DNA of 64,000 bases from Anaerolineales bacterium (GCA_043788255.1 JAYVUA010000080.1:7488-71487), one strand, 5' to 3'. Numbered from the stretch's first letter, positions 1,554-26,786 are shown. The notes: a model not told the origin generated them from the sequence alone. Numbers and translations: made by a program.

Positions 1554-3740
1554 ATGCAACGTGTGAAAATTGGCTTTATTTCATCTTTACTTTCTGTCAT
1601 CATCCTGCTGACGGCGGCCTTTACAAACGCCGCTCCGCTATCTGCAATTGTGATGAATGAAGGTCGAACGTATGACCAGGCGCATGACACCGGCTACATC
1701 GATTGGAGCGGTTCTGCGCAGTATGTGGTTGTCACACATAAAGATGGTTCCTCTCTACTCCCGGAGGAAGGTGGAGCATCTTGTAATTCAAGTTGTACAG
1801 AGTGGGTCACACGGCTCGGCAATGGAGGTATGGCGAGTGGTTCATTTGATCGAGATGTTTCCTATTTTGAGATCATGGTGGAATTTACCCGTGATTCCAA
1901 TGTGGGAAGTGCGACACTTCGCGCTTGCTCGGCTGTCAGTACGTGGTATTTGTATAACAGTGGGGGCAGTCTGCCTGGGTATGTAAGCATGGTTTTAACC
2001 GTGCCGGCAGGCTGCCGGTCGTGGTCGATCTCAGCTTCTGGTGGTTATGTGGACTTTCGGTCTGTCGATGTGAACTACAGCGGACCACCCTCCACACCCA
2101 CCTTTACGTCTACTCCATTACCAACTTTTACACCCTCTGCAACACGGACGCCAACGCTGATCCCTACATCTACCTTCACACCTACTCAGACATCTACACC
2201 AACATTCACATCCACAAATACTCTGACGCCGACACCTACGCAAACCTTCACTCCGACCAACACTTCGACGCCAACCTTTACACCTACATTTACTCCGACC
2301 AACACACCCTCTCCGACTCCAACGCCGTTACCGCCAGTGATCGTTGGGCAAGTGGTCTGCGACCTTTGGGGAGATGCAGGCTGGTGCAGAGGAAGCGAGA
2401 CTTTGGTGTTGACTGCCAGCGATCCGCAGGGATTTGATGTCACTATCAGTGGAGACTTAAATGGAATTCCATTCTCATGCGGAAGCGCCTGCAATCTACC
2501 CTTGCCGGAAGGAAGGGGAACTGCCAGTTACCTGGTTACTTCAACCAGCGGACGGACAGCAAGTGGATCGTCCACATGGCAGCGGGATGGCACGCCACCA
2601 AACCTCAATATTGTTCTTCCGCCGCTGGATGGAAGGAATGGATGGTATGTCTCAGAAGTGGATGTGTCGGCAACGGCAATGGATGCGGTTTCCGGTCTTT
2701 ATTCATTGTCAGGAAGTACGGATAATGGCACGACTTGGGTTTTATTCCCGATTCACCTCACGGATGGAGTTCATCCAGTAGTAGCTCATGCGCAGGACAT
2801 CGCTGGAAATGAAGGTTTGGAATCGGAAGCGGTCCACGTGGACACGGTTCCTCCTGTCTCACAATTTACATCTCATTCAAATGGAGAGGTGGTGAAGGGA
2901 AGCGTACTGTTGACGGGAAGTTTGGAAGATATGACCTCAGGCACAGATGGCGGTGAATTATCTATTGATGGCGGGATCACATGGCAGGCGGTGTCAATGG
3001 GAACGGGTGATACCTGGTCTTTTACCTGGCAATCAAATGAAGTGCCAAATGGCCAATATACATTGCAAATGCGCGGGGTGGACCAGGCCGGCAACGTGGG
3101 TGATCCAGCTTCCATTACTTTGGTTGTTGATAATGGTCCACCTGCTGTTTCCATTACAGAACGTTGGTGGATATGGGAAGCTGGTGAGCTAAAGGTTTCC
3201 CCCAGCCACTTTCCACTTGCCAGTGTACAGGTGACCATACGTGATCCGCAAAATCGCTGGCCGGCAGTGGTTTTGAATTTTGATCCTGATAAGGGTACTG
3301 ACTCCATATCCTGGAATCGGCGCTTTGCGGATGGAACCCTGGCTCCCTCTGGGGAATATCCTGTTGTGGCGGTAGCTTGTGACATTCACGACCTGTGTGG
3401 AAGTGATAGGGGAATCATCGCGATTCCAACGATGGCCACCTCGACCGCTATCACAACGCCATCGCCGACTGCAACAATGACACAGACTCCCTACGCTACA
3501 TCCACGGCGACACAAAAGCCGCCGACACCAACACCAGTGTTGGTCACCCCGTCGCCTCAAAATGTCTCCGAACCTGTCCGACCTTCGTTCCCGTTCTGGC
3601 AGCTACTTGGGTTGCTGGGCTTATTCATGGTAATCGCGTCTGCCAGTTTGGTTGATCCCCGCCCTGCGGCATTAGATCGGCTGAAGGAGAGCATCAAACT
3701 GCTACTTGTAAAGAACAACGGCTCATCGAAAGATGATTAA
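1554..3740 (+). CDS. Secreted surface protein with Thr/Pro-rich linker, Ig-like (Big) repeats and C-terminal membrane anchor
   Basis: N-terminal signal peptide; TPTFTPT repeats; D-x-A-G-N / VDTVPP / VDNGPP Ig-like motifs; C-terminal [18 protein letters not shown]. Confidence 0.8.
2090..2335 (+). repeat. Degenerate Thr-Pro coding repeat (linker)
   Basis: Translation TPTFTSTP...[20 protein letters not shown]. Confidence 0.8.
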
Positions 3741-3771: not shown

Positions 3772-4320
3772 ATGGAAATAATTCTTGCTATTGTAGTGGG
3801 TGCTGCTGTGATCTTTTTTGGTGTATTGATTAGCATGGGCAATGAACGGCAACGAAAGGCAATCGATGGCCTGCATGAACAAATTATCTTATGGGCCATG
3901 CAGGATCTGCGTATAAAGCGCGAAAGGCTTGCGCGTGATGTGCAAGTAAATAATCCCATCGAATGGCTCAATAAAATAACCGCCAAAGTTAGTGGTTTTA
4001 ATTTGAATTTGCAGGTTGTTGAGTTTTTCGATAACCCCCAGACGCTTGTGTGCGCTTCCGCTGATGGAACTAACAAGGTGATTTTCAGCCCCTTATCTCC
4101 AACTGAAACTCATCAAATTAATCGCAACAAACGCAGCCGACTTTCCCAGTATTCGGATCGAAATCCATTACTATCAATATCGCGCCATGTTCAAGTTTAT
4201 GAATTGTCAGTATTAAATGGCGGCATTCTATTTGATCTGGAGTTACCTCTTGCATGGAAAAGCTTAACCAATCAGGAGATAGAACAGATTGAGCGCCTTT
4301 GGATGTACAGGCCAAATTAG
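3772..4320 (+). CDS. Hypothetical protein with N-terminal membrane anchor
   Basis: 182 aa; RBS aaggag upstream; hydrophobic N-terminus; AT-rich. Confidence 0.75.
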   Translation: MEIILAIVVGAAVIFFGVLISMGNERQRKAIDGLHEQIILWAMQDLRIKRERLARDVQVNNPIEWLNKITAKVSGFNLNLQVVEFFDNPQTLVCASADGTNKVIFSPLSPTETHQINRNKRSRLSQYSDRNPLLSISRHVQVYELSVLNGGILFDLELPLAWKSLTNQEIEQIERLWMYRPN

Positions 4321-4626: not shown

Positions 4627-5448
4627 TCATCTCGCCTTTATTGGGCTGGTTTTTCGCCTTTGAGTAAGCACAATGGAAATAATAACCGCCAAATAGCTCA
4701 AATAGGCAACGACCTCAGTTAAAGATGGGTTGCCGTTGTACCCGACCAATGCTTTCAGAAGCAAACCCATCTCACTTTTGTCGCTCAAAACCCCATTGAT
4801 ATCCCAAAGATTCTCGATCACTGAGGGGATGACACCTGCTTCATTAAACTCATGAATTCCCAATCCTACCAACCCTGCCGCAAAAACAATCAACAGGATA
4901 TTTGTAGCGCCAAAGAACCCACGCAGGCTGAGTTTTATGGTGGAAGTAAATAACACCCATCCCAAAATCGTCGCGATTAACAGTCCAAGCAACGCGCCTA
5001 AAAAGGTTTGTAAAGGGCTGGATGTCAGCCTTGCGGCCAGTAGAAATAACGCCAATTCAATGCCTTCACGAAACACTGCCAGAAAGGCCAGAGCGAACAA
5101 AGCCTTCTGCCCATTCCTCAACGTTGCCTGGTTGGTTTGTTCCTCAATTTCATTCTTGAGGGTACTTCCATGATTCTGCATCCACAGGATCATCCAGGTG
5201 AGTACGCCGGCGGCAAGCAGCATGGCGACTCCTTCAAAAACCTCCTCGCCTTTGCCCTCAAATTCCATACCAAGTAAATTGAGTGCGATTGCTGCCAGGA
5301 AGCTCAACAACACCGCCAGCCCCACCCCGCGCCAGACAACACCATTCAATTCTGTGCGTTTTATTTTGAGCAATACTCCCAACACGATTCCAATTATGAG
5401 GGCGGCTTCCAACCCCTCTCGCAGAGATAATAGAAAACTTGCAAGCAT
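4627..5448 (-). CDS. FTR1-family iron permease (EfeU/FtrC-like)
   Basis: Two RExxE motifs (LREGLE, FREGIE); ~7 TM segments; YNGNPS C-terminal motif. Confidence 0.92.
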   Translation of the reverse strand: MLASFLLSLREGLEAALIIGIVLGVLLKIKRTELNGVVWRGVGLAVLLSFLAAIALNLLGMEFEGKGEEVFEGVAMLLAAGVLTWMILWMQNHGSTLKNEIEEQTNQATLRNGQKALFALAFLAVFREGIELALFLLAARLTSSPLQTFLGALLGLLIATILGWVLFTSTIKLSLRGFFGATNILLIVFAAGLVGLGIHEFNEAGVIPSVIENLWDINGVLSDKSEMGLLLKALVGYNGNPSLTEVVAYLSYLAVIISIVLTQRRKTSPIKAR

Positions 5449-5469
5449 TGTATATAAACCTCCAGGTTT

Positions 5470-5934
5470 TTATGGGATCCAATTGGACAACACGTTCACA
5501 ACCAGATCTGGATTTGCGGGGTCATTTGTTTTGAGATGAATCCCAAAGTTGTGCGGACCATCCATCCCTTCGTGCATCATGAAAATAGCAGATTCAACGA
5601 TCGTGCTTTCGCCAGGCTTGAGTACCATCGAACCGATGGTAAGTTGAGGGGGTCAGCATCCCTCCAGGACTTCAACGAACGGTTCTTCCTTGAAACGCAG
5701 CACGCCGTCGCCTGTGTTGGTGACTTTTATCGCAAAGGTTTTATTGACTCCGAATTTCACATCGCCATAATCAATCCTTTGCTGATCGACTGTAATGAAT
5801 GGCGTTCCACCACCATCTCCGCCGCCTCGATTAGCGAAGAAGAAAGCAGCGATGATTAACAGGACACCGCCAATAACTACAAGTGCCCAGGGAAAACTTT
5901 TCCTTTGTTTTTGTCTCTTAATTTTTTTGCTCAT
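5470..5934 (-). CDS. DUF1573-like Ig-fold membrane-anchored protein, probable selenoprotein (in-frame TGA at 5655-5653)
   Basis: ORF track stops at ...VEVLEGC*, but the frame continues PPQLTIGSMVLKPGESTIVESAIFMMHEGMDGPHNFGIHLKTNDPANPDLVVNVLSNWIP to TAA at 5472-5470, just before the FTR1 RBS; hairpin 11 nt after TGA. Confidence 0.72.
5623..5641 (-). promoter_or_regulatory. Candidate bacterial SECIS element
   Basis: mRNA UGA-CCCCCUCAACU-UACCAUCG-GUU-CGAUGGUA: perfect 8-bp stem starting 11 nt after UGA, G-first apical loop. Confidence 0.65.
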
Positions 5935-5943
5935 AGTGCCTCC

Positions 5944-6945
5944 TTAATTGTCATATTCAAACTGGAACGAATATAGGTATGCGATCAAATCCCAGATTTG
6001 TTCTTCGGTGAAAATCGAGCCCCACATGGGCATGCCTGTCCCCATGCCGCCGCGCAGGATCTTGCCCTGTAATAATGCGGGACTGGCACCGAGCATCCGT
6101 GTTGGGTTTGTGAAATTAACAGGCGCCTGCATCATCATATTGTCTGCCCCTGTCATTGTCTGCATAGATGATGCACCCACCGCTTGCAGGTCATCGGCAA
6201 AGACTCCGTCGCCTGCACCGTTCTCGCCGTGACAGGCGGCACAGTTTTGGGTATAGAGTTGTCCTCCATTTGTTAGTGATTCTTTTGTTGTATTCGATTG
6301 CCAGATGTAAGCAACCACATCCCATCGTTGTGTTTCAGTGAGTGAAGTTCTATTCAGTTCATCGAATACTTGATAGGGTGAGCGTGTGCGGTAGTAATCA
6401 GCAGATCGGTCAATTAGCAAATTGGTTACTAACTTCTGCCCGCTGATTGCTGACGGTTGACTGCTCGGAATAACAGGCGCGTTGTGAGGAGCGTCAAGGT
6501 TGAGGTCGAGGGAAACATAAAGAGGTGGAGAAACAGGCTCAGGAGCCTGTCCTGAGCTTGTCGAAGGATCCGAGGGTGAACCGCCGACTTCTATCGTGCC
6601 GCGCATCCGCCAGTGATTGAGTCCGCACCAGCGCGTGCAGAAGAAGGTGTAAATCCCAGGCTTGTCAAAGATCAACGTAAGGTCAGTCACTTTGCCAGGC
6701 AGGATATCCACGCCTTCCATTTCCATCTGACCAACTGCAAACCCATGAACAACATCATCAGAGGTGAAACGTAAATGAAGCGGTTCGTTGACGTCCGCCT
6801 GAATGACATCGGGATTCCACCCGCCATTTTCCGACACTTGGGCATGGATCAGCGGTGTGCTTGACCAAAAGAAAAGCGGCGCGCCAATGGCAAGAAAAAT
6901 CCCTGCGATGATTAAGATGCGTGAGAGGAGTTCCGAACGCTTCAT
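5944..6945 (-). CDS. CuA-type cupredoxin (COX II-like) + cytochrome c fusion protein
   Basis: Start ATG 6945 overlaps upstream TGA; DVVHGF...FFCTRWCGLNHWRM CuA-like motif; CAACH heme-c motif with distal GMPMW. Confidence 0.85.
   Translation of the reverse strand: MKRSELLSRILIIAGIFLAIGAPLFFWSSTPLIHAQVSENGGWNPDVIQADVNEPLHLRFTSDDVVHGFAVGQMEMEGVDILPGKVTDLTLIFDKPGIYTFFCTRWCGLNHWRMRGTIEVGGSPSDPSTSSGQAPEPVSPPLYVSLDLNLDAPHNAPVIPSSQPSAISGQKLVTNLLIDRSADYYRTRSPYQVFDELNRTSLTETQRWDVVAYIWQSNTTKESLTNGGQLYTQNCAACHGENGAGDGVFADDLQAVGASSMQTMTGADNMMMQAPVNFTNPTRMLGASPALLQGKILRGGMGTGMPMWGSIFTEEQIWDLIAYLYSFQFEYDN
6545..6567. repeat. REP-like element (CCTTCGACAAGCTCAGGACAGGC) inserted in frame in the interdomain linker
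   Basis: Minus-strand sequence encodes PSTSSGQA; recognised from memory as a widespread short interspersed repeat. Confidence 0.55.
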
Positions 6946-8273
6946 AGGAGTAACCAGAGCATGACCAGTGTGGTGATGAAGCAAAATACGATGACAGGAG
7001 TTGAGGATGCTTTTATTTCGTTCGCGGCTTTTTGCGCAGTGCGCGCAGACCAGATCAAGCCGCCAACCAATGCAAGTGTTTGCGCGGGTGCAAGAACGGA
7101 CGTGAGCATCGGTTGCCACGCGGCGTTTGCCGTGCCGAATAAATCCCAGCCGAGACCCAGCGGATCGGAGAGAGCGGCGATGATGTAGGATGCATTGGTT
7201 AACACGAAAGATAAGCTGAATGCAACCCAGAACATCAAGCCGAGAGGAATGAGGGCTGTTGCAAGAGAAGCAAATCGTTGTTTCAGTGGAAGGGGGCTTT
7301 TCGTCTGTAGGATGCCAAGTGTGAAGAGTCCAGGAAGAACAACAAAGATAATCGCAAGAAAAATAACGGCATATATAAACCATGCGCTTGTACCAACATT
7401 GTATGCCGCATCTTTAAGTATGCCCCACGGACCAAGTAGTACACCCGCGTAGATCATTGCCGAACCGAGCATGATGAAGGCTTTGAAGGCTTCGTCCATT
7501 CGTGTGGATGGTTTGGCAAGGTCGGCGGAGAAAGGGCGCAAGTTGACGGCAATGTTGTCATGCGGACAGGTGCGGATACACTCCATGCACAGACCGCAAT
7601 ACGTGTTCTTCGTCAAACCTCCAGGAAAGACATCCCAAGGGCAGCCATATCCATTGGCTGAACCATTGTAGCAGGGCTTACCTTCACAGGTCACACAGAC
7701 CTGCTTGTCTTTGATTCGTAATTCGATGGGAGCAGTCTGGGAATACAAACCGATAAATCCGCCAACGGGACAGAGATAACGGCAAAAGGCGCGGCGTTCG
7801 AAGATGGTGCTCAGTCCAACGGCGGCGAAGAGCATGGCGGCAAGGACAATGCCCGTGATGTTTGGAGTCGTGAGCAGGACACTGCTGAAGAGAGCCAACA
7901 GAAGGAATGAAATATTTTGCAACCAGATGTTGCGGAACAATTTTGGCACACGCAAGTTGAGCCATTTCGGTTTTTTGTCAGGTGGAGCAAGTATCGCACC
8001 GCGTTGCAGCCACTCACCAGGCAATGGAATTGGACAGACCGCGCACCAGCCGCGTCCGAAAAATGGGACTGCAACGAGAATGAGGATAGCCCACCATGCG
8101 ATCCATACAAAGACAATGCTGAAGTTGTGACTTCCAACAGGCGTGCCGATAAGGCCTGCAAGAATGGCAAAGATATACCCAACCAGCATAACGATAAATA
8201 CGGCTAGTTGAGGATAGTGGCTCTTCAACGCATTTTTTATAAAGGGGATACGGGTAAGTTCGATCTTCGCCAT
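6942..8273 (-). CDS. Membrane polyferredoxin (4Fe-4S binding; NapH/NosR/FtrD/YccM-like)
   Basis: GRGWCAVCP, RAFCRYLCPVGG, CVTC...C, CGLCMECIRTCPHDN plus multiple TMs. Confidence 0.88.
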   Translation of the reverse strand: MAKIELTRIPFIKNALKSHYPQLAVFIVMLVGYIFAILAGLIGTPVGSHNFSIVFVWIAWWAILILVAVPFFGRGWCAVCPIPLPGEWLQRGAILAPPDKKPKWLNLRVPKLFRNIWLQNISFLLLALFSSVLLTTPNITGIVLAAMLFAAVGLSTIFERRAFCRYLCPVGGFIGLYSQTAPIELRIKDKQVCVTCEGKPCYNGSANGYGCPWDVFPGGLTKNTYCGLCMECIRTCPHDNIAVNLRPFSADLAKPSTRMDEAFKAFIMLGSAMIYAGVLLGPWGILKDAAYNVGTSAWFIYAVIFLAIIFVVLPGLFTLGILQTKSPLPLKQRFASLATALIPLGLMFWVAFSLSFVLTNASYIIAALSDPLGLGWDLFGTANAAWQPMLTSVLAPAQTLALVGGLIWSARTAQKAANEIKASSTPVIVFCFITTLVMLWLLL

Positions 8274-8283
8274 AATAATAGAA

Positions 8284-8727
8284 TTAAGTTTTTTGCTTTA
8301 TGGAAATAATCACACCAACAACAGCCAGCAGGGCCAACCCAATGGAACGAAATAACCAGTGATTGGAGCCCACGTTCAACTTGCCGATCATGAAAGGGTG
8401 CATTGCACCACAAGTCACATTGCATCTGAAGCGGAACGAGCCTGGCTTATCGGCAACGAACGATAAAGTTTTGGTCTGACCAGGGTCGGCTTGAATGGAA
8501 ATATCATAGCCATCCATATACAATCCATGCACCACATCTGTACTGACAAGTTGAATATTCACTGTGTCACCAGGGTTGACTTTAAGCTCGTAGGGAGAAT
8601 ATGCAAATTGTCCCGCTTCAATCCGAAAGGTCCGCTTTTGAGGCGTGATGGGCCGAACTGGCAGTGGCGCAAAAGCCACTACCAGACCAGCCATGACAAG
8701 GAGGAGAAGAGTGAAGCGCGGGTTCAT
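8284..8727 (-). CDS. CuA-type cupredoxin with N- and C-terminal TM
   Basis: DVVHGL...FRCNVTCGAMHPFM; ATG 8727 four nt after the upstream stop. Confidence 0.85.
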   Translation of the reverse strand: MNPRFTLLLLVMAGLVVAFAPLPVRPITPQKRTFRIEAGQFAYSPYELKVNPGDTVNIQLVSTDVVHGLYMDGYDISIQADPGQTKTLSFVADKPGSFRFRCNVTCGAMHPFMIGKLNVGSNHWLFRSIGLALLAVVGVIISIKQKT

Positions 8728-8731
8728 CAGC

Positions 8732-9178
8732 TTATGGAATATTGGAAGGTCCGTACTTGGCGTAGGTAGCATCCACATATGCCCTGGCTTTTGCAGGCGT
8801 CTGCCCCTCTTGCAACATCCGCATAACATCCTTGGTAATATCTACACAGATCGAACAGCCAAGTGCATGATTATCGAATTTTATAGTACCCTGTGCATCT
8901 ATATCTGAAACATAGCAGTCATAATTCGATGTATGTCCAATATCGCCACAGCCGCAATAACAGGGAATATCTTTCATTATGTCAGGGTTGATGGAGGCAA
9001 ATTGATAAGCCTCCTGTACTGCCACAGGCGCGGCTTGCACGTCCGCAGGCATTTGATCCATCGGCATCATGTAAAGATGGACATCACTTGATTTTGAAGT
9101 TGAACAGGCGGAAATTGCAGTGGACAACAAAACCGCTATGAGTGAAAGAAATAAAAATTTGCGTGACTTTGAAATCAT
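8732..9178 (-). CDS. PCYCGC-motif lipoprotein
   Basis: Lipobox AISAC; IPCYCGCGDIGH..NYDCY and CSIC motifs. Confidence 0.88.
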   Translation of the reverse strand: MISKSRKFLFLSLIAVLLSTAISACSTSKSSDVHLYMMPMDQMPADVQAAPVAVQEAYQFASINPDIMKDIPCYCGCGDIGHTSNYDCYVSDIDAQGTIKFDNHALGCSICVDITKDVMRMLQEGQTPAKARAYVDATYAKYGPSNIP

Positions 9179-9257
9179 ATTGGGACTCCAGTATCGGATA
9201 GCCCAATAGTAGTCTGATAGTTCAATAGTCTCCAGCGCAGGATAGCGTAATGGCGTA

Positions 9258-9273
9258 TGCGCCAAATGGCTTA
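9258..9273. promoter_or_regulatory. 7-2-7 operator copy (TGCGCCAAATGGCTTA)
   Basis: Matches consensus TARGCARAATNGCYTA; 80 bp upstream of start 9178. Confidence 0.6.
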
Positions 9274-9343
9274 TGATGAACGTCATAGCGAGCGCTTTCT
9301 AGAAGATTACAGTGCTCACCTATATTTGAAATATGAAGAATAT

Positions 9344-9643
9344 TTACTTTGCCACAACTTCTGCGCGGTATTCATGACGGCCATCGTTTCCCGATCCGAC
9401 TACAGCATTTACAAGCGCTTCAGCAGAGACCTTTCTGCCATTATAGAAAACTTCAGCCATCCCCATATTCAGGGATATTTCCGCGTGAAAAACTCCCTCC
9501 AGCAAAAGCAAGCCATTCCGCACGCGCGTGGCACAGTTCTGGCAGCCCATTCCCGAAACAGCTAAAAGGGCGCTGTCGGCATTACGGATCACACTGTCCA
9601 GCGCAGTTTTATTGATGGGTTCAACGTAGCATTTTTCGTCCAT
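9344..9643 (-). CDS. Heavy-metal-associated (HMA) domain copper chaperone, CopZ-like
   Basis: VSGMGCQNC motif in HMA fold. Confidence 0.88.
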   Translation of the reverse strand: MDEKCYVEPINKTALDSVIRNADSALLAVSGMGCQNCATRVRNGLLLLEGVFHAEISLNMGMAEVFYNGRKVSAEALVNAVVGSGNDGRHEYRAEVVAK

Positions 9644-9664: not shown

Positions 9665-9868
9665 TCAGTTTTGCTGGCAAATTAATAAATGTTTTGTTTT
9701 CTTTACCTTCTCCCCAAACTCCGGCTTTGCAAAGGATTTTGGTGCGCGCTCAAATTGCGCCTGACATTGGGGACAACAAAGAAAGTAGTTGATGCCCTCG
9801 TGTTCTATGGTGATGTGTGCCTTTCCACGATTGATGCGTTTGCCGCATACTGGATCTTTGAATGACAT
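9665..9868 (-). CDS. YHS-domain protein
   Basis: DPVCG...YFLCCPQCQAQF; RBS aggag before ATG 9868. Confidence 0.85.
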   Translation of the reverse strand: MSFKDPVCGKRINRGKAHITIEHEGINYFLCCPQCQAQFERAPKSFAKPEFGEKVKKTKHLLICQQN

Positions 9869-9950
9869 ATCGGAACTCCTTGTTTTTGATTGACGTGCAG
9901 AGCGCATCTGAACATCTTCTTGATTTTAGATTAACGTTCAGGATTTCTTA

Positions 9951-9966: not shown

Positions 9967-10064
9967 ACTCGTACATAAGCATTTTTGCTTATGCCATTCT
10001 TGATAAAAATACTCCTGACCGCATTGACGGTCAGGAGAGAGAATCAGCATTTTATTGCCCTACA

Positions 10065-11654
10065 TTAATTTTCGATTTTGTAATTTCTCATCATACCTGC
10101 ATCTTCATGTTCGAGATTGTGACAGTGATAAAGAAATGTCCCGGCATAATTCTCAAAGCGGACAAGTACCTGAACCTTTTCTCCAGGCATGACCAGCACG
10201 GTATCCTTCCAGCCATCATCCACAAAACCAGCACTTAATTCCTGATACATCGACTCGTTACCCAGTGCAAGCTCGCGTCCGAGCACCTGAAATTGCACAC
10301 CGTGAATATGCATCGGATGCGGCATTTGCATATTCATCATACCCATTCCCATGCCGCCTCCGCCACCTTCGAGATTGGCAAATTCCCAAATCTCCAAATC
10401 GCCAAGCTGCACGATCTCATCACAGGCAACCGAATCCATTTCGAACACGCGACCGTTGATGGTATGAGTCATGCCCTGCATCGCCAGTGTAAACGAGCGT
10501 GGGTTATTTCGATTAACTGCATCTTCCGCACGATGACGCGCAATGATTGAAAGCTGAGCAGGGAGCGGGAGAACATCCGCGCCTTTCTCTCCGACTTTCA
10601 AACTCAGGATGTCGAATGGCGCGCCATTGGGCAGGCTGGAACCTCCGCCCATCATTCCTCCACCATTATCAAACCCTGAAAACGGTAAACTGACCAATCG
10701 CATTTCACTACCTGTTCGCTCACTAAAATCCACCCAGAGTTCCACCCGTTCACTAGGCGCGAGCGTAATATAGTCACGGGTTCCTGGCGCTTCCAGCAAA
10801 CCGCCGTCGGTGGCGATCACGGTTAGAGGTGTGCCATCCTGCCATGCGAGTTTATAGATGCGTGAGTTCGAGCCATTTAACAATCGCAAGCGGTACGCGC
10901 TGGCTTTAACATCCAGCGCCGCGTTTGGCGCACCGTTGACCAGAATCGTATCGCCCAGAAAACCAATCATCGAATCCAACATGCCGTTCGCCAGATAAAC
11001 CATCTCGTTTTGCGAGTCGAACGTACGGTCCTGTATTACCAGCGGCAGGTCATACTCACCAGACGGCAATCCCAGCGCGGCTTCCTCGTCGTCGCTGACG
11101 ATGAACAAACCCGCCAATCCGTAATACACCTGCGGGGCAGTCAACTGATGCGGATGCGGATGAAACCAATACATGCCTGCGCGGTTAATCACCCGAAAAT
11201 CATATTCAAAACTTTCGCCGGGCGCAATCGCATAACGCGGATGCCCGTCCATCTCTTCTGGAATTAACAGTCCGTGCCAGTGGATGATGGTGGGATCGGG
11301 AAGTTCGTTCTTAAGCCGAACCTGGACTCGTTGACCTTTCTTTACCCGAAAAATGGGGCCAAGATAGGAGTCGCTCAACGTCTGGATTGATTCTGCGCTT
11401 CCCTCCCGCACTGCTGACTGATACCACCAAACGGGCGTTTCTGCCCCTGAGAAAATAGGCAGCGTGGTTCGTCCAGCAGTCAAGTCAACGGCAAGGGAAA
11501 CAGGTATAGACGCGAGTGGCGTCAGGATAACGGGAGCAGTTGTCGGGTTCGCGAAGCGTGAAGCGGGCGGAATGAGTCCACAGGCACTGAGAGTCAATGT
11601 CCCTGCGCCCATTCCCATCAGTTTGATAAAGTCCCTGCGAGTGAGTCTGTTAAT
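10065..11654 (-). CDS. Three-domain multicopper oxidase (CueO-like), Tat-exported; probable ATT start
   Basis: HWHG, WFHPH, HPMHIHG, HCHNLEHEDAGMM motifs; the twin-Arg signal LTRRDFIKL lies upstream of the first ATG (11618), in frame from ATT at 11654, 9 nt after AAAGGAG. Confidence 0.9.
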   Translation of the reverse strand: MNRLTRRDFIKLMGMGAGTLTLSACGLIPPASRFANPTTAPVILTPLASIPVSLAVDLTAGRTTLPIFSGAETPVWWYQSAVREGSAESIQTLSDSYLGPIFRVKKGQRVQVRLKNELPDPTIIHWHGLLIPEEMDGHPRYAIAPGESFEYDFRVINRAGMYWFHPHPHQLTAPQVYYGLAGLFIVSDDEEAALGLPSGEYDLPLVIQDRTFDSQNEMVYLANGMLDSMIGFLGDTILVNGAPNAALDVKASAYRLRLLNGSNSRIYKLAWQDGTPLTVIATDGGLLEAPGTRDYITLAPSERVELWVDFSERTGSEMRLVSLPFSGFDNGGGMMGGGSSLPNGAPFDILSLKVGEKGADVLPLPAQLSIIARHRAEDAVNRNNPRSFTLAMQGMTHTINGRVFEMDSVACDEIVQLGDLEIWEFANLEGGGGGMGMGMMNMQMPHPMHIHGVQFQVLGRELALGNESMYQELSAGFVDDGWKDTVLVMPGEKVQVLVRFENYAGTFLYHCHNLEHEDAGMMRNYKIEN

Positions 11655-12045: not shown

Positions 12046-13425
12046 CTACATTCTCATTGCCATCGGAAGCGTGAACAGAATCACATTCATAATAGTGAGG
12101 ACGACCATCAAGACTGCATAAGGGACAAAGGTTCCCCAGACCTTACCGTCGGCGCTGTTGTTTTTCGCGATGCGATAGGCAACATAAAGCGACCCGATGA
12201 AACCAAGCGCCAGCAGCCCAAATTGCAGGAATTGAATGGTAGCCATATCGAGAATGGCGAGGGAAGCTCCGTGAAATTCCATGCCGAATAATCCCATTGC
12301 CGTATAGTAAATGGATTTGCCTTCCGCCAAAAGATGGAACAGGTTGTGAGCAATATGACCTGCCATGTCCAACGCGATGATGGCATACCCGAAGCGGGCG
12401 AAATTTTCCACGAGAGAGACTTTGTTGAACTTACCTGCAACCCAGGAAGTAAAGCCAAGTAAAGCCACTGGCAAAATAATGGCGGTTGCAAAAGTAATAC
12501 TGAACGTGACTGCGTAATTGGTTGTGCCTGTAACCTGCTCCAGCCAATTTAGCACCTTGCCCCACACTTCGAGCATGGTCACATTCTGTACGAACACAAT
12601 ACCCATGATGACCGCTGAAAGGAAAGCTTCTTCAACTTTGGGCTTGCGGATGAACCATAATTCCTTTGTGGGCGGGCGCATCGTCAATTGAATGGAGTTA
12701 TTGGGGCAGCCTTTGATACATTCCGCGCAGAGCACGCAGTTGGCGCTGGAAGTCATGGTCTTGGGAAATTCGTACAAGGGACAGGGCATGGAATTATCTG
12801 TGCCTTTATAACATGCGGCCACTGTGCAGGTTGCACAGATATCAGGAGTTCCACGGAGGCTCAACATACCGTTTCGCGCGTAGTTACCGGATAATCCGCC
12901 GAGGAAACAAACGTAGCGGCAGAAGGTACGGCGTTCATAAAAAGCGCCAGAAACGATCACGCCCGTGGTTAATGTCAACATCAAGATACCAGAACCGAGC
13001 GGATTTTCCACCACGCCCCAGACATGGTCACTCCAGGTGATGAAGATGAAGAGTGCATCAATGATCCAGATGCCGTATTTTTTCAGGAACTTCGGCACAG
13101 GACGTTTGTTACCGACAAAGTTTTGAACAAGATCATTGATCTTGGCAAATGGACAAATGGCACACCAGAAACGTCCCAAAAACAGGAAGATGATCGGGAT
13201 CAACGGCCACCACAACACCCAGGTCAGGGCGGTACCGAAGTTGTCATGCGCGGCTTCGGGTCCAAGAATCAGCTCGAACATGATCAGCATAAAAATGATC
13301 AGAGTGGGCCATTGAATAATGCCGGGATACCAGCGGCTGCGCAGGAAATTATTAATCAACTTGTTGTCGAGCAGATTTCTGCCATTCAGCCAGGATGGGT
13401 TTGGAGTGTTGATCGGTGTTGTCAT
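12046..13425 (-). CDS. Second membrane polyferredoxin (4Fe-4S binding)
   Basis: GRFWCAICPF, RTFCRYVCFLGG, CATC, NCVLCAECIKGCPNN; paralog of 6942-8273. Confidence 0.88.
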   Translation of the reverse strand: MTTPINTPNPSWLNGRNLLDNKLINNFLRSRWYPGIIQWPTLIIFMLIMFELILGPEAAHDNFGTALTWVLWWPLIPIIFLFLGRFWCAICPFAKINDLVQNFVGNKRPVPKFLKKYGIWIIDALFIFITWSDHVWGVVENPLGSGILMLTLTTGVIVSGAFYERRTFCRYVCFLGGLSGNYARNGMLSLRGTPDICATCTVAACYKGTDNSMPCPLYEFPKTMTSSANCVLCAECIKGCPNNSIQLTMRPPTKELWFIRKPKVEEAFLSAVIMGIVFVQNVTMLEVWGKVLNWLEQVTGTTNYAVTFSITFATAIILPVALLGFTSWVAGKFNKVSLVENFARFGYAIIALDMAGHIAHNLFHLLAEGKSIYYTAMGLFGMEFHGASLAILDMATIQFLQFGLLALGFIGSLYVAYRIAKNNSADGKVWGTFVPYAVLMVVLTIMNVILFTLPMAMRM

Positions 13426-15587: not shown

Positions 15588-15899
15588 TCACATCTGCTTA
15601 AATTGTTTGAGTTGTTCTCTCAACGTGGCAACAGTCGGAATGCCCTTGATGCCATCTGACGATGGAAAGACGCGGCAACTCAGCGCATACGTTTCTCGTT
15701 CCTCTGGCCAAAGTTCATGACCGTCAACGCGAAAGGACGGCGAACCAAGAAACTTCAATTGATTGGCTTCTTCGTTATCTTTCACTTCAATCACATCAAT
15801 AGGAGCGGTGAGGCCTTCTTCTTCCAGTGCAGATCGAAGATTCTTCAATCCATTTTTCCACGACGGACAACCATCAAAGTAAAGCAATTCGATTTTCAT
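15588..15899 (-). CDS. Thioredoxin-fold protein (DUF2703-like)
   Basis: IELLYFDGCPSW...FLGSPSFRVDG...LSCR. Confidence 0.75.
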   Translation of the reverse strand: MKIELLYFDGCPSWKNGLKNLRSALEEEGLTAPIDVIEVKDNEEANQLKFLGSPSFRVDGHELWPEERETYALSCRVFPSSDGIKGIPTVATLREQLKQFKQM

Positions 15900-20830: not shown

Positions 20831-20912
20831 AAGCCTGCCTGTATAAAATGGGATGGATATATCATAAGCAAAACCCCGCCCCTGCATGAGCGCAGGATGG
20901 CGGGGCTATGGA

Positions 20913-20928
20913 TAAGCAAAATGGCTTA
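20913..20928. promoter_or_regulatory. 7-2-7 operator copy (TAAGCAAAATGGCTTA)
   Basis: 83 bp upstream of the ccdA start. Confidence 0.7.
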
Positions 20929-20942
20929 TGACGTTTATCGCT

Positions 20943-22637
20943 TCACAATCGGACCGTTAGCCTGCTGCCCTTTCCCAAAGTGGATTCCATCTCGAGCCGC
21001 GCACCGATCAGGTCGGCGCGTTCATGCACGCCCAACAAACCGAAGTGTCCGCTCGGGGCAAGTTCAGTGGGACTTTTCGGCATGATGAAGCCATTGCCGT
21101 TGTCACTGACTTCCATCTTGATTTCCGAATCTTCAAAGGTAATTTTCAAATCGGCATGGCTGGCCTTGGAATGTTTGACCACATTACTGACTGCTTCCTG
21201 CGCGATTCGATAGAGCGATAATTCCTCTTCGCGTGAGAGGCGGCGTTCCTCTCCTCTTTTTTGAAAATCCACAGTCAATTGATTATTATGAGCAGTTTCG
21301 CGGGTTAACATATCAAGTGCGGTAACGAGCCCCAGATCTTCGAGATAGATGGGACGCAAGGCTCGTATCAGGCGGCGTAGGTTTTCAACAGTTTGTTCCG
21401 CAAGACCCTCAAGTTCCTGAAGTGAGCGTTTTCCGTTCTGGTCTTTGACCAACTTTTCGGCCAATTGCACGCGTTGTTTCAATGCGATCACCGATTGAAT
21501 GGTTTCATCATGCAATTCACGCGCCAGCCGCATGCGCTCATCTTCCTGCGCGGAAGTGATCGCGCCGATGTAATCATGCAATCCCTCCTGGGAAGCCTGT
21601 ACCTTGCGCGACATCTCAGTCAATTCCATTTGCAGATGCTGCACTTCCAAAATCCCGCCGACGGATTCTTTGATGGCTTCAAAGTCACCCCATGCCAGCG
21701 CGGCGGCCTTAGATTCAAGTTTTTGCAATGGCTGTACAATTTGCTTTGCACCAAACCAGATTGCGATCAGAGCAAGGATGAAAGCAGGAACCATGACAAG
21801 GGGGGCCATCTGGGTTAACTGCAACGATGGACTGATCACCATTTCCCATTCTTCCTCGGTGATCAACGCCCAGCCTGTCAATACGATGGGGCTATATGCA
21901 ACGACGTGTTCTGTCTTATCCTTCTTGACATAAAGCACGCCGCTATTTCCTTGCATTGCCTCTGTAACACCTGGGTGGTTGGGTTCCAAAGTTTCCTGTG
22001 CAAGTGCGCCGCTCACGAAAAGCAATCGACGCGATTTGTCGAGCAGGTAGATGGTTACATGGCTGCCTGTTGGATAAGTGGTAGAGAGGGTTTTAATGGC
22101 AAGTGTTTCAGGAGAAAACGCGCCCGCCACAATCACATTGCGGGAGGCGGAGTATGCTGAAATGATAACGAAAAGTTGGTTTGAGCTGGGGTCAAGGATT
22201 GGATCGGAGAAAATAGGTTCACGGTCCGAAGGAGAAGCGAGAGAAAGACTTTGTGCGTTTTGAGAAACCCATCCCCAAAAACTGTCATTGCCTGTATTGG
22301 CGAGCAAGCGTCCATCTGAATCGAGAAAGGCTATTTCACCATTGAAATCATTTGCAAGATCATTCGTAGTTGCAAAGATTTCTTCAAAAGTTAGCTCCTC
22401 AGAAGATAGAACAGCCATACTGGTAATTGTAGCCACGCGATGGTGTAATTCAGATTCGAGCGCGGCGGCAGAAGATTGAACCGCGCGCTCATCACGCTCG
22501 CCAACGAGGGCACGCATATCCTGCTGGTGCATGTTGACACCGCCAAAAGCGATTACCAACAGTAATACAGTAAGTGGCAGGATTGTGACTGCGAAAAGTT
22601 GTGTGAGGCCGCGCCAGCCAGGCAGGAGACGTTTCAT
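20943..22637 (-). CDS. Sensor histidine kinase (Cache-like sensor, HAMP, HisKA_3)
   Basis: ERMRLARELHDE H-box; LYRIAQEAVSNVVKHS; DNGNGF; GHFGL. Confidence 0.93.
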   Translation of the reverse strand: MKRLLPGWRGLTQLFAVTILPLTVLLLVIAFGGVNMHQQDMRALVGERDERAVQSSAAALESELHHRVATITSMAVLSSEELTFEEIFATTNDLANDFNGEIAFLDSDGRLLANTGNDSFWGWVSQNAQSLSLASPSDREPIFSDPILDPSSNQLFVIISAYSASRNVIVAGAFSPETLAIKTLSTTYPTGSHVTIYLLDKSRRLLFVSGALAQETLEPNHPGVTEAMQGNSGVLYVKKDKTEHVVAYSPIVLTGWALITEEEWEMVISPSLQLTQMAPLVMVPAFILALIAIWFGAKQIVQPLQKLESKAAALAWGDFEAIKESVGGILEVQHLQMELTEMSRKVQASQEGLHDYIGAITSAQEDERMRLARELHDETIQSVIALKQRVQLAEKLVKDQNGKRSLQELEGLAEQTVENLRRLIRALRPIYLEDLGLVTALDMLTRETAHNNQLTVDFQKRGEERRLSREEELSLYRIAQEAVSNVVKHSKASHADLKITFEDSEIKMEVSDNGNGFIMPKSPTELAPSGHFGLLGVHERADLIGARLEMESTLGKGSRLTVRL

Positions 22638-23326
22638 TCTTCTTCGATGATATTGCCCGAACCCTGTGAGATCAATCCCAGAGAGACGCCACGCATGACA
22701 GCTTCAGTTCGGCTGGTGGCTTGCAGTTTGGCGAAGATATGCGCGAGATGCCCCTGCACGGTACGGTCGCTGATGCTAAGCTGTACACCAATGGCTTTAT
22801 TGGTGAATCCTTTTGCAGCAAGTCGCAACACATCCAGTTCACGATCCGTCAGCGGTTCGACAATTTTCTTCTCTGTTCCTTTGAATATGTTGGACATCAA
22901 TTTGCGCGTGATGGCAGGGTCAAGTGCAGACTTGCCCTCATTTACATCGCGCACAGCTTGAATAAGATCGTCGGTTTGTGCTGTCTTGAGCACATAGCCA
23001 TTCGCGCCTGCCTGCAGGACTGCCATCACATATGGATCGTCATCGTAGGCCGTTAGGATTAACACGCCCACTTCTGGCAAATGTGCGCGCACCCAGCGAG
23101 TCACTTCGATACCACTGGCTTTGGGCATTTGGATATCCAGGACCGCCACATCAGGTTTGTGCTTCTGAATGAGGGCTTGGGCTTCTTCGCCATCTCCCGC
23201 CTCAGCTATGACCTGAAGATCGCTCGCGCTTTCAAGCAATTGGCGCACCCCTGCGCGGACGATGTGATGATCGTCAGCCAGAAGAATGCGGATTTTGGTT
23301 TTTGATTTGCTCAATGACTTTGCCAT
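22634..23326 (-). CDS. NarL/LuxR-family response regulator
   Basis: ILLADDH, VLDIQMP, LTDRELDVL...TNKAIG...TVQGH HTH. Confidence 0.93.
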   Translation of the reverse strand: MAKSLSKSKTKIRILLADDHHIVRAGVRQLLESASDLQVIAEAGDGEEAQALIQKHKPDVAVLDIQMPKASGIEVTRWVRAHLPEVGVLILTAYDDDPYVMAVLQAGANGYVLKTAQTDDLIQAVRDVNEGKSALDPAITRKLMSNIFKGTEKKIVEPLTDRELDVLRLAAKGFTNKAIGVQLSISDRTVQGHLAHIFAKLQATSRTEAVMRGVSLGLISQGSGNIIEEE

Positions 23327-24047
23327 AACTAAGTGGTTCCAATTCTTGATTGAGTGCTTGAGTCTGAAAAATATAAGGGAAGGCGAGCCAGACGATACCA
23401 AGACCAGCCAAAAGTCCAGTGATGAAGCGCATGAGAGAATTGAACGAACCGAGCGCATCGCCTGCGTAGAATGTCGCAGAGAATGAATTATTCGTCAGTA
23501 TCACAAGCCATTGATTTGTATCACGAAAGCCCTGTCCAATGCCAGCGAAATCGCTCAGCATATGCGTACCACCATCCATTATAAGAGGAAGCAGAAGCAA
23601 AATGAATCCGAACCAGGATAAGGTTTTGATCCTGCGTCGAAATGGAAACCAAAGTGCTGCAAACATCCAGACACTGGTGTAAAACGAGATCATGCGATCC
23701 GACCAGGCGACCTTCCAGCCCATGCTTTCATTACCAATAAATTGACGGAGAATCATGGGGTTAATAGTATCCTGCCAGACGGCTTGAACTTCACTCAACG
23801 AATACATGGTTTTTTCGCCAAAGAGAAAGAATGACCGTTCTGGAAGTTGATGACAAAAAAATGAGTAAATGAAGTATATGGCCCTTCCTGCTCCGATCCA
23901 ACCGATGTATATGAAGAAGGGTGCAAGAAAAGGCGCGAATACCCACAGTCCATAAACGATCAGAAAAGTCTCAAACCAATGGATGCCAATCCATTGAAAG
24001 ATGGACTGTTTGGGTTTTGGAAGAGCCGGTGTTGTGATGGTAGACAT
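23274..24047 (-). CDS. DUF2085-like membrane protein
   Basis: YSFFCHQLPERSF; MDGGTH; RFITGLLAG. Confidence 0.8.
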   Translation of the reverse strand: MSTITTPALPKPKQSIFQWIGIHWFETFLIVYGLWVFAPFLAPFFIYIGWIGAGRAIYFIYSFFCHQLPERSFFLFGEKTMYSLSEVQAVWQDTINPMILRQFIGNESMGWKVAWSDRMISFYTSVWMFAALWFPFRRRIKTLSWFGFILLLLPLIMDGGTHMLSDFAGIGQGFRDTNQWLVILTNNSFSATFYAGDALGSFNSLMRFITGLLAGLGIVWLAFPYIFQTQALNQELEPLSYGKVIEQIKNQNPHSSG

Positions 24048-24054: not shown

Positions 24055-24633
24055 TTATGGTGCGTCAGGTTCAGGTGCTTTATTGAGATTGGAGCGGTAG
24101 AAGACCTTGGCCTGTTCTGCATCAAAAGTTTCAAAGCGCTGCAATCGTCCCCAGGATGTCATGACAAGTGGGGTATCAAGCGAAGGCCAGGGATAGGCAA
24201 TCAACTTTACGCCACCCAGATCATCGATTGTGGTTTTAATTTGTTCCTTTAAGTTCGTGCAATCAGATTCGTCCAGCAAGTCGCAGTTGTACCAGAAGAT
24301 CACATATCCATGTTCCAAATTATGGACGAGATAACCAGCTGGAAACTGATAATTGTTGTTGTCAAAAAAACCTGCCCTTGCCTCCTCCGCGTAATGTGGA
24401 CCTGAGGTTGGCGGGTCGGAATTGTATTCACCAGGATCGCTATCGACTGGGATATGTGGGTCGCTCACCATGATCGGGACAGACTCGCCTGCTGCTGGAC
24501 GGGCGCTCTGCGAAATGACAAGGGCGATGATCACAAGTATAGCCACTCCGATCCCACCCCAGACAAGACTACTTTTAAGTTTTTGTTTGCGCTGGCGGTC
24601 ATGCAATTGTTGACGTCTGTTTTTTGAATTCAT
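24055..24633 (-). CDS. DUF3105-like membrane-anchored protein
   Basis: YNSDPPTSGPHY; VHNLEHGYVIFWYNC. Confidence 0.85.
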   Translation of the reverse strand: MNSKNRRQQLHDRQRKQKLKSSLVWGGIGVAILVIIALVISQSARPAAGESVPIMVSDPHIPVDSDPGEYNSDPPTSGPHYAEEARAGFFDNNNYQFPAGYLVHNLEHGYVIFWYNCDLLDESDCTNLKEQIKTTIDDLGGVKLIAYPWPSLDTPLVMTSWGRLQRFETFDAEQAKVFYRSNLNKAPEPDAP

Positions 24634-24654
24634 TTAATTTCCTGAATTTAATGG

Positions 24655-24690
24655 TAAACAGGCATCAAAATGATTTCTGATGCCTGTTTA
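24655..24690. terminator. Terminator-like hairpin
   Basis: taaacaggcatca / tgatgcctgttta. Confidence 0.7.
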
Positions 24691-24698
24691 GATTTCAA

Positions 24699-25091
24699 TT
24701 ATTGAATTGGAAGATTGATGTCTTCTTTATAATCAAGTTCCCCTTTCCGCACGTAGATGGTTAACACCCAATCGCCAGAATCACTAAAATTGGCTTTGAT
24801 GGAATATTTTCCTCCACCTTGTTCGGTTGCCTGGCCGTTCATACCCATTCCTGCCATCGCAGGATGTTCAGCAGCCACATCCACTTTTGCACCTTCGATC
24901 AATGCACCACTGGCGTCGGTAATGGTGAACATTAATTCCACATCGCCTTTCACGGCAGGTGATGGATTGGTTTCCAGTTTGATGTTCACCTGCCCGGAGG
25001 AAGACGTGTCAGTCGGCGTTGCCGCATTGCCACAAGCCGCCAGTAAAACAGATAATGCCACGAGTAGATTGATTAACAAAAACTTACGCAT
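24699..25091 (-). CDS. FixH/YtkA-like lipoprotein
   Basis: Lipobox LAAC; HPAMAGMGM; GGGKYSIKANFSDSGDW. Confidence 0.8.
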   Translation of the reverse strand: MRKFLLINLLVALSVLLAACGNAATPTDTSSSGQVNIKLETNPSPAVKGDVELMFTITDASGALIEGAKVDVAAEHPAMAGMGMNGQATEQGGGKYSIKANFSDSGDWVLTIYVRKGELDYKEDINLPIQ

Positions 25092-25113
25092 TTCTTCTCC
25101 TTTAATAAAATGA

Positions 25114-26196: not shown

Positions 26197-26277
26197 GTTT
26201 CCTCTTAAAGTTGGGATAGCCGCTAACTATAAGGAATTCACCATTTCTTAACCAGAGCAATTTGACGCAGTTGAAGA

Positions 26278-26293
26278 TAGGCCAAATTGCCTA
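26278..26293. promoter_or_regulatory. 7-2-7 operator copy (TAGGCCAAATTGCCTA)
   Basis: 82 bp upstream of start 26196. Confidence 0.72.
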
Positions 26294-26677: not shown

Positions 26678-26727
26678 TTTACAGAATCTCTCTATAAGTC
26701 CGAAGAGCCGCGTGGCGTATTCTTTCA

Positions 26728-26743
26728 TAGGCAGAATCGCCTA
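26728..26743. promoter_or_regulatory. 7-2-7 operator copy (TAGGCAGAATCGCCTA)
   Basis: Best match to consensus; upstream of the 26291 gene. Confidence 0.72.
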
Positions 26744-26745
26744 TG

Positions 26746-26786
26746 AAAATCTTCCCCTGTTTGTTGAAGAAACAGGGGAAGATTTT
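26746..26786. terminator. Intrinsic terminator
   Basis: aaaatcttcccctgttt / aaacaggggaagatttt. Confidence 0.8.

Follow-up and report, generated by a model that had tools for sequence, protein, structure and literature searches.

The systems designated FtrABCD, known in Bordetella, Brucella, Burkholderia and Rubrivivax, combine a permease of the FTR1 family, a polytopic 4Fe-4S polyferredoxin and a protein of cupredoxin fold. The cupredoxin-fold member, FtrB, is a Cup-II protein without a His/His/Cys site (PMC11966278). CcoG, another membrane polyferredoxin, is a 2×[4Fe-4S] cupric reductase with a periplasmic immunoglobulin (Ig)-like domain of unknown role; it provides CopZ and P1B ATPases with Cu(I), and its homologue YccM lacks the Ig-like domain (PMC7558416). 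Three kinds of protein that FtrABCD contains are also encoded together in a six-gene operon of an Anaerolineales bacterium (GCA_043788255.1, JAYVUA010000080.1:7488-71487), which a preliminary description had called Ftr-like. The operon lies within a stretch of 64,000 nt (hereafter the window), which comes from a sediment metagenome and in which positions are counted from the first letter and the operon genes are on the minus strand. In related genomes, which number in the hundreds within Anaerolineales, the conserved unit is the first five of the six genes, encoding a PCYCGC lipoprotein, a CuA cupredoxin, the polyferredoxin, a CuA-cytochrome c protein and a selenoprotein, without FTR1, and its conserved neighbourhood is one of copper and heavy-metal homeostasis, not iron.

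By open reading frame (ORF) listing and sequence reading, the six co-directional minus-strand genes extend from 9178 to 4627. They encode the PCYCGC lipoprotein (8732–9178; PF13798, 93.8 bits against a threshold of 25, with the motif present), a cupredoxin with transmembrane (TM) segments at its N- and C-terminus (8284–8727; COX2 31.3 bits, Cupredoxin_1 30.8 bits), the polytopic polyferredoxin (6942–8273; Fer4_5, 38 bits), a TM-anchored CuA-cupredoxin/cytochrome c fusion (5944–6945; Cytochrom_C 61.3 bits, COX2 37.0 bits), a TM-anchored Ig-like protein with an in-frame TGA (5470–5934, read-through translation) and the FTR1 permease (4627–5448; Pfam FTR1, PF03239, 180 bits); both COX2 scores lie above the Pfam cut-off of 22 bits. 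The intergenic gaps along the operon are 4, 10, −4, 9 and 21 nt, the negative value being an ATGA overlap that joins the polyferredoxin gene to the CuA-cytochrome c gene. ORF listing and gap lengths agree with the tight coupling of six genes and the single overlap that had been described, and the motifs quoted at the time (CNVTCGAMHPFM, CTRWCGLNHWRM, CAACH, PCYCGC, and REGLE/REGIE in FTR1) are all present. The absence of P19/FtrA holds both for the operon and among the scanned window ORFs, in which Pfam also found neither EfeO nor EfeB.

Conservation was assessed with the CuA/cytochrome c protein as anchor. A scan of one genome per species gave 352 relatives, the best 80 of which were used for locus counts by tblastn of the window proteins, the denominator being the loci with enough flank for the gene in question. 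These best 80 are all Anaerolineales/Chloroflexota assemblies except three bins labelled otherwise, probably binning errors. The polyferredoxin was found in 68/68 loci, the cupredoxin in 60 of the 61, the PCYCGC protein in 60/60 and the selenoprotein, adjoining the anchor, in 75/75; FTR1 was found in 11/56, about a fifth. Because the first five genes keep an identical order in every one of the 60–75 informative loci, their arrangement is far beyond chance. The proposed operon is therefore conserved for its first five members, and co-occurrence in other genomes, on which the earlier proposal had been staked, was found for these five but not for FTR1. Beyond the 3′ end of the module the gene content varies in other loci and includes sensor kinases, Zn/Cd-type P1B ATPases, Met-rich proteins and, by sequence reading, an ArsR-like gene. 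In L013 (11539–13587), L020 (10477–12537) and most FTR1-bearing loci, a convergent Zn/Cd/Pb-type P1B ATPase (TIGR01512, about 470 bits) stands just 3′ of the module or of FTR1; it is absent from this place in the window. A three-gene variant near CopA (L004, 8565–10471; L005) lacks genes for the cupredoxin and the polyferredoxin; it consists of a PCYCGC protein, a cytochrome c protein and an Ig-like protein of the Cys type. In L004 the cupredoxin domain of the cytochrome protein has lost both CuA cysteines (STTPSSPNFWRM).

The permease has a history of its own. Its REXXE motifs, REGLE and REGIE, are present and conserved. It scores 239 bits on the NCBIfam EfeU model (equivalog cut-off 255) and is 35–39% identical over its full length to plasmid-borne EfeU, compared with 31% over 204 aa to FtrC of the reference ftrABCD locus (Azospirillum oryzae plasmid NZ_CP054622, L089); by these comparisons it is nearer to EfeU than to FtrC. 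In a metagenome scan with the window FTR1 protein, all 18 of the informative loci at 80% identity or above carried the gene directly behind the module, and relatives at 51–73% identity were never found with the module. One apparent exception, L093, has insertion-sequence transposase fragments (964–2009) 5′ of an FTR1 gene (90% identical), where the module would be expected. Among loci without module genes, a DtxR/IdeR-type repressor gene (Fe_dep_repr_C, FeoA) stands beside FTR1 in 30/62, and since its relatives adjoin such iron repressors FTR1 itself is probably an iron carrier; the 51–73% relatives (L109–L169; e.g., L115, 643–1338) are also often near a hypoxanthine phosphoribosyltransferase-like gene. 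Because the closest permeases lie behind the module and the more distant ones stand alone beside DtxR genes, an iron-regulated, stand-alone permease was recruited recently to the module's end in one sub-lineage; FTR1 does not belong to the conserved unit in which it had been placed, following the module in about a fifth of loci and standing alone in its distant clade.

The fifth gene is interrupted by a TGA codon (5653–5655, minus strand) that is kept in orthologues and is read as selenocysteine (Sec). More than 1000 full-length Ig-like homologues of about 154 aa have GCCPP where the window sequence has GC-TGA-PP, and the closest relatives end at the same TGA codon. The codon is TGA in 76 of the 81 instances in the loci fetched with the neighbouring gene, and in 94 genes, 81 of them distinct, when both locus sets are taken together; Cys forms are confined to stand-alone genes (L002, L003), an extra tandem copy (L001) and the three-gene variant (L004, L005). 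In L001 (GCA_040960765.1), which has no FTR1, the Ig-like gene occurs in tandem after the module, at 10001–10465 (GCCQP) and 10517–10981 (Cys-TGA). Homologue P0041, 89% identical to the window protein and encoded on a 594-bp contig, has Trp at the Sec position, probably an artefact of gene prediction with a genetic code in which TGA means Trp, and not a real substitution.

Bacterial selenocysteine insertion sequence (SECIS) elements are hairpins that follow shortly after the UGA and carry G/U in the apical loop. Here a local stem fold, TACCATCG-GTT-CGATGGTA (5623–5641, minus strand), begins 11 nt past the TGA and forms a stem of 7–8 bp with apical loop GUU. Its core codons (ACC ATC GGT TCG ATG) have a third-position entropy of zero in the 81 distinct sequences, compared with 0.85–1.57 bits for the flanking codons on both sides, and the stem shows a compensatory pair (CCGTCG/CGACGG) in L069 and a G-U pair in L084. 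The conservation of hairpin and TGA has the signature of a bacterial SECIS element, and the gene appears to be a genuine selenoprotein gene; the candidate status first given to it is borne out by the Cys alignment, the 94 TGA-bearing genes and a hairpin without synonymous variation. No selA, selB, selC or selD was found within the 64-kb window (no tRNA; Pfam of window ORFs). The residues C-C/U, P96, H121, M124 and H128 are invariant and M120 and D125 nearly so, within a conserved FMMHxGMDGxH motif; to judge from this pattern, Cys/Sec together with Met/His would make up a soft ligand set. An AlphaFold2 model of homologue P0001 (69% identical; pLDDT 84.6) is an ASH/PapD-like beta-sandwich. The DUF1573 label that the gene had been given is weak because the window protein scores 17.8 bits on PF07610 against a cut-off of 26.1; some homologues have precomputed PF07610 hits, and no NCBIfam selenoprotein model matched the window Ig-like protein.

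The cysteines and metal ligands of the other proteins predicted to face outwards are also constant. The PCYCGC lipoprotein has a lipobox (ISAC) and seven conserved cysteines, all invariant in 54 orthologues; the NCBIfam 'CYCXC family (seleno)protein' model gives it 66 bits, below a cut-off of 90, and a homologue search returned close orthologues only among the matches listed (top 120), where more distant contexts would not appear. The two CuA-motif domains that had been noticed have complete ligand sets: H67, C102-X3-C106-X3-H110-X2-M113 in the cupredoxin, invariant in 55 distinct orthologues, and H67, C103, C107, H111 and M114 in the fusion, invariant in 72. Both match the CuA domains of CoxB and NosZ (NCBIfam), and the spacing from His to the first Cys, 35–36 residues, equals that of cytochrome oxidase subunit II. 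The predicted c-type haem of the fusion is likewise upheld by its Cytochrom_C match, and the haem motifs CAACH and GMPMWG are invariant in the same 72 distinct orthologues.

Of all the module's proteins the polyferredoxin is best conserved (72–93% identity in genome-contig loci). It has CX2CP and CX3CP motifs, two 4Fe-4S motifs and a Fer4_5 membrane domain; the conserved motifs are WCAVCP, FCRYLCP, CVTCEGKPC...CP and CGLCMECIRTCP. It matches NapH/MauN (NCBIfam) and E. coli yccM, and its similarity to A. oryzae FtrD, 27% over 228 aa (E 7e-15), makes it a distant homologue of that protein, as had been supposed; by these matches it is assignable to the NapH/CcoG/YccM/FtrD superfamily. A paralogue in the same island at 12046–13425, which is not an Ftr protein, is the stronger match, 27% identical over the full length (E 4e-41). 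A plasmid tblastn search with the polyferredoxin, in which three neighbourhoods were examined, gave nothing on function.

Upstream of the PCYCGC gene, on the same strand, lie genes for a CopZ-like HMA metallochaperone with the motif GMGCQNC and without a signal peptide (9344–9643; Pfam HMA 38.6 bits; NCBIfam CopZ models below their cut-offs) and for a YHS/TRASH-domain protein (9665–9907; Pfam YHS 37.3 bits), and this YHS-HMA pair is found immediately 5′ of the module in many related loci. No terminator-like site was found between the HMA gene (9643–9344) and the PCYCGC gene; a terminator-like hairpin lies at 10037–10012, 3′ of the oxidase gene, and a promoter-like site at 9951–9923, 5′ of the YHS gene. 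Bioreactor metatranscriptome contigs span the whole operon and bridge the HMA-PCYCGC-cupredoxin-polyferredoxin junctions, although DNA carry-over in the libraries is possible. On these grounds the transcription unit probably begins upstream of PCYCGC, with the YHS gene as its probable first gene, and includes the chaperone and the module.

The preliminary description had placed the operon under one operator at 9258. This candidate operator is recognisable as a conserved 18-bp imperfect palindrome, ATAAGCCA-TT-TGGCGCAT (9257–9274, minus strand), which is kept in nearly all related loci and is perfect in L013; as noted above, transcription probably begins farther upstream. Related loci conserve the nucleotide sequence for about 115 nt 5′ of the PCYCGC start. 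A 184-aa reading of the PCYCGC protein from an ATG at 9286 was rejected, as related loci do not keep this ATG and the conserved stretch shows the behaviour of non-coding sequence. The candidate operator recurs with a second box, CCGCCATCCTGCGCT, 5′ of ccdA and after a kinase gene (window, about 20912–20929), and the ccdA-side element is also present in L001, L025, L041, L068 and L072. The shared element, ATAAGCCATTTGGCKYAT plus CCGCCATCCTGCGCT, spans some 55 nt (window 9179–9300 and about 20895–20960, minus strand). Because palindrome and box precede both, the PCYCGC and ccdA operons probably form one regulon; the 7-2-7 layout of the palindrome would suit the adjacent NarL-type regulator (22634–23458). 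A third class of site, GATAAGCCATTCGGCG, before OmpR-type regulators may be a chance resemblance and was not used.

Between the shared element and the PCYCGC gene, RNAalifold of 35 leaders predicts a hairpin over the Shine-Dalgarno sequence that ends right before the ATG (9179–9207, minus strand). Its helix has 12 pairs, of which one changes from GC to AU in 15 sequences; one-sided changes are mostly to G-U, and 98% of the hairpin cells are paired, compared with 33–41% when the partners are slid. The window copy has one mismatch. In the ccdA leader the shared element is followed by a terminator-like hairpin, and no Rfam family matches the leader, which may be an operator accompanied by separate hairpins or else one regulatory RNA that has two expression platforms.

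The operon is embedded in a larger copper island on the same strand. Upstream lie genes for a CueO-like multicopper oxidase (11618–10065), the second polyferredoxin (13425–12046), a Met/His-rich YtkA-like protein paired with it (14149–13451), a DF-family (seleno)protein in its Cys form (15588–15899; NCBIfam 86.8 bits, above cut-off), which comes directly after CopA, and CopA itself with a YHS head (18541–15905; TIGR01511, 622 bits, above cut-off), together with a Cupredoxin_1 protein, an extracytoplasmic rhodanese lipoprotein, CcdA, a dCache histidine kinase, a NarL-type regulator and DUF2085. Beyond the two-component system, window 24055–27938 (minus strand) carries DUF3105, a two-domain multicopper oxidase of 360 aa (25114–26196) and a YncE-like beta-propeller, so that the island extends to about 27 kb; a reading of the 360-aa oxidase as NirK was rejected at 87.7 bits against a cut-off of 296. 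The pair of second polyferredoxin and YtkA-like protein recurs in 9–10 related loci. Ig-like proteins with soft metal ligands, predicted to face outwards, adjoin both polyferredoxins of the island, and by analogy these pairs look like CcoG split into two genes. Among the 34 related loci of at least 15 kb, 31 carry a homologue of CopA, the multicopper oxidase, HMA, YHS, Cupredoxin_1 or YtkA, and 27 carry a P1B ATPase. The iron context that the name Ftr implied was thus not recovered: the conserved neighbours are copper and heavy-metal genes. Most small thiol families of the island (CYCXC, DF, YHS, UxxU HMA-like, rhodanese, DUF1573) have known selenoprotein forms.

Other parts of the window lie outside this island. 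Downstream of the operon a plus-strand gene (1554–3740) encodes a surface protein of 728 aa in which long linkers rich in Pro and Thr occur along with bacterial Ig-like domains; after it comes an ORF of 182 aa (3772–4320) without a family match. On the plus strand at 31085–42442 is a complete haem biosynthesis cluster (GluTR, HemC, HemD, HemB, a radical SAM enzyme, HemE, ferrochelatase, HemL, a chlorite-dismutase-like coprohaem decarboxylase and an amine-oxidase-type oxidase), which indicates a coproporphyrin-dependent route.

The reading that we favour, with slightly less than even confidence, is that the module may be a copper redox and trafficking device to which iron import has been appended in this lineage, because the five-gene core is invariant and FTR1 optional, copper genes accompany most of the long loci, the polyferredoxin falls in the CcoG group and Ig-like soft-ligand proteins stand beside both polyferredoxins. 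From hydrophobic segments and the positive-inside rule, the four other module proteins are predicted to face outwards and the Fe-S motifs of the polyferredoxin to face the cytoplasm. At the outer face of the membrane, the PCYCGC protein (through CYCGC) and the Cys-Sec protein (through GC-U with Met/His) would bind Cu(I); the two CuA centres and the haem would exchange electrons with the bound copper, interconverting Cu(I) and Cu(II); the polyferredoxin would link this chain to cellular redox carriers or, in the manner of CcoG, make cytoplasmic Cu(I) for CopZ and CopA; and CcdA and the lipoprotein rhodanese, under the shared operator, would keep the outer Cys and Sec residues reduced. Where FTR1 is present, the module might supply the Fe(II) oxidation step that the permease needs; alternatively, FTR1 may serve to increase iron supply under copper stress. 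In Rubrivivax, iron import by Ftr is copper-induced and aids tolerance of Cu and Cd (PMC7415376).

Several observations count against a copper redox and trafficking role. Within 10 kb, three of the 34 long loci are devoid of copper genes; none of the classical copper sensors (CueR, CsoR, CopY or CopRS) was seen, the nearby kinase being of the dCache type; and the islands also hold Zn/Cd-type ATPases, so that specificity for copper is not proven. Fold searches gave no functional analogue, with no significant match for the PCYCGC protein (best CcmH, E 1.7) and only generic ASH/PapD-like Ig folds, including 2qsv, for the Ig-like selenoprotein model. With the Fe-S motifs predicted on the cytoplasmic side, no route for electrons between them and the CuA and haem centres outside is evident, and since CuA and cytochrome c potentials lie far above those of typical Fe-S clusters, work in the oxidase direction would need another electron sink. 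The reductase direction is thermodynamically easier. The oxidase direction would explain the attachment of FTR1, which needs Fe(III) made in situ, and would be of value where O2-dependent copper oxidases fail; its sink would have to lie above the Fe-S potential and might be a terminal oxidase reached through the cytochrome. A more far-reaching proposal, which we think unlikely as a whole, is that the module could represent an unrecognised class of selenium-dependent membrane metallo-oxidoreductase that oxidises Cu(I) at the outer face, and Fe(II) where FTR1 is present; it would have no O2-reducing centre of its own, would work through a haem c, a Cys-Sec site for the substrate and two CuA centres that stand alone, and would have its expression set by a conserved leader, perhaps a new cis-regulatory RNA. 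In facultative anaerobes such an enzyme would do what multicopper oxidases otherwise do.

Other functions can be set against the copper device. As first described, the operon would be a dedicated Ftr-like iron uptake system in which the cupredoxins oxidise Fe(II), FTR1 imports the resulting Fe(III) and electrons pass through the polyferredoxin to the quinone pool. The permease does stand with both REXXE motifs 21 nt behind the selenoprotein gene, the module precedes FTR1 in all 18 loci that have an orthologue of at least 80% identity and readable flanks, the polyferredoxin has a homologue in true FtrD and FTR1 relatives adjoin DtxR-type iron repressors; but 45 of the 56 module loci lack the permease, the three-gene and five-gene forms both occur without it, its own relatives stand without such partners nearby, and with no P19, cupredoxins unrelated to FtrB and copper genes as the conserved neighbours we hold this function to be distinctly unlikely. 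The order of CuA and cytochrome c domains, which is that of caa3 subunit II, brings to mind instead a respiratory branch, in which the two CuA proteins, the cupredoxin and the cytochrome c fusion, would deliver electrons to, or take them from, a terminal enzyme encoded elsewhere and the remaining proteins would mature these two: the polyferredoxin as a CcoG-like supplier of Cu(I), the PCYCGC protein as a thiol reductant or copper donor and the selenoprotein as a PCuAC/YtkA-like chaperone. CcoG provides a precedent in oxidase assembly, ccdA belongs to the same putative regulon and the best, non-significant fold match of the PCYCGC protein is CcmH (as above); yet none of the families tested for a terminal oxidase or reductase occurs within 10 kb in any locus, and to be the most conserved protein would be unusual for an assembly factor. 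Because the three-gene variant retains the PCYCGC and Ig-like proteins despite the loss of the CuA cysteines, these two would not be CuA-insertion factors only, and the respiratory proposal, helpers included, strikes us as doubtful.

Defence against thiophilic metals or chalcogen oxyanions (Hg, Ag, Au, selenite, tellurite) would give the Cys-Sec and CYCGC motifs the part of a reactive site. In its vicinal Cys and Sec the protein recalls the GCUG redox tail of thioredoxin reductase. Several of the island's small thiol families have catalogued selenoprotein forms, and several of these are tied to heavy-metal resistance: CYCXC, DUF1573 and YHS appear as selenoprotein families in two selenoproteome reviews (PMC9312934, PMC13188914), and DF, UxxU HMA-like and rhodanese bear '(seleno)protein' family names in NCBIfam. 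A pyridine-nucleotide-disulfide oxidoreductase lies near the module variant in L004, and Zn/Cd-type ATPases are neighbours elsewhere. Against such a defence, no mer genes were seen in the window or the loci, the potentials of CuA and cytochrome c are ill-suited to the reduction of disulfide or selenenylsulfide bonds and the commonest neighbours are copper genes, which makes this the least likely of the functional explanations. That the genes are adjacent by chance, with a pseudogene broken by a stop codon and no functional unit, might be suggested by the TGA, on either side of which ORFs of 93 and 52 aa remain, and by the truncated calls P0081, P0115 and P0120; it is refuted by conservation, as 94 genes retain the TGA together with the frame beyond it and a hairpin invariant in nucleotide sequence, the gene order is invariant and the region is present in RNA libraries, and its probability is practically nil.

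No description of this gene set was found in the literature, where the PCYCGC protein was found only as an uncharacterised lipoprotein, and no paper was found that joins Anaerolineae, copper resistance and cupredoxin. All of the domains are of known kinds; what appears to be new is their combination, together with an Ig-like clade bearing a vicinal Cys-Sec pair that, inside the module, is essentially always Sec. The functional context foreseen for PCYCGC proteins has materialised, in that the PCYCGC/CYCXC family has a fixed set of partners (60/60 loci) and a metal context, which makes its function testable. To our knowledge, few natural CuA centres occur outside cytochrome oxidase and N2O reductase, and here two conserved centres of this type are encoded in one operon outside oxidases. 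The module also connects extracytoplasmic copper proteins with polyferredoxins of the CcoG/NapH type, in a phylum of monoderm type that is frequent in metal-accumulating sludge and sediments, and records an evolutionary step in which a stand-alone, DtxR-linked iron permease was joined to the end of a copper operon.

The components can each be placed beside described relatives. The window PCYCGC protein shares PF13798 with the CYCXC/OS_HP4 (seleno)protein family, of which it is an all-Cys form. The Ig-like protein shares with catalogued DUF1573 selenoproteins a broad PF07610-like Ig fold and Sec in place of a Cys in a Cys-rich motif; the motif of the catalogued proteins is U-G-C, whereas here it is C-U (GCUPP), a form of which no Ig-like example turned up when the two reviews (PMC9312934, PMC13188914) were searched by term. 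The fusion protein shares H-X35-C-X3-C-X3-H-X2-M, followed by a CXXCH cytochrome c domain, with caa3 subunit II and the CuA domain of NosZ; compared with caa3 subunit II, it is anchored by a single TM helix, its cupredoxin domain is short, neither subunit I nor a catalytic partner is encoded nearby, and its operon adds a second, stand-alone CuA cupredoxin. With CcoG, YccM, NapH and NosH the polyferredoxin has in common the Fer4_5 domain, CXnCP motifs and two 4Fe-4S motifs, and with CcoG a link to copper handling (CopZ and CopA nearby); the Ig-like protein is separate here and in cis in CcoG. The polyferredoxin carries no FixG_C domain in cis and has more predicted TM helices, and in place of ccoNOQP/ccoHIS or nap/nos genes its partners are CuA cupredoxins and a cytochrome c. 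The permease is similar to that of EfeUOB, but neither EfeO nor EfeB is encoded in the operon. As for FtrABCD, the outline of permease and polyferredoxin that gave rise to the name Ftr-like stands, but the FtrB type, P19, joint inheritance of FTR1 and the iron context do not: the cupredoxins are of CuA type (Cys2His2Met) and without similarity to A. oryzae FtrB (E 0.044), the permease is EfeU-like and optional (11/56), a cytochrome c, a PCYCGC protein and a selenoprotein are added, and the context is copper where that of FtrABCD is iron. With FtrD a distant homologue, FtrB unrelated and the permease EfeU-like, the system resembles Ftr in outline but differs in most of the features that define membership.

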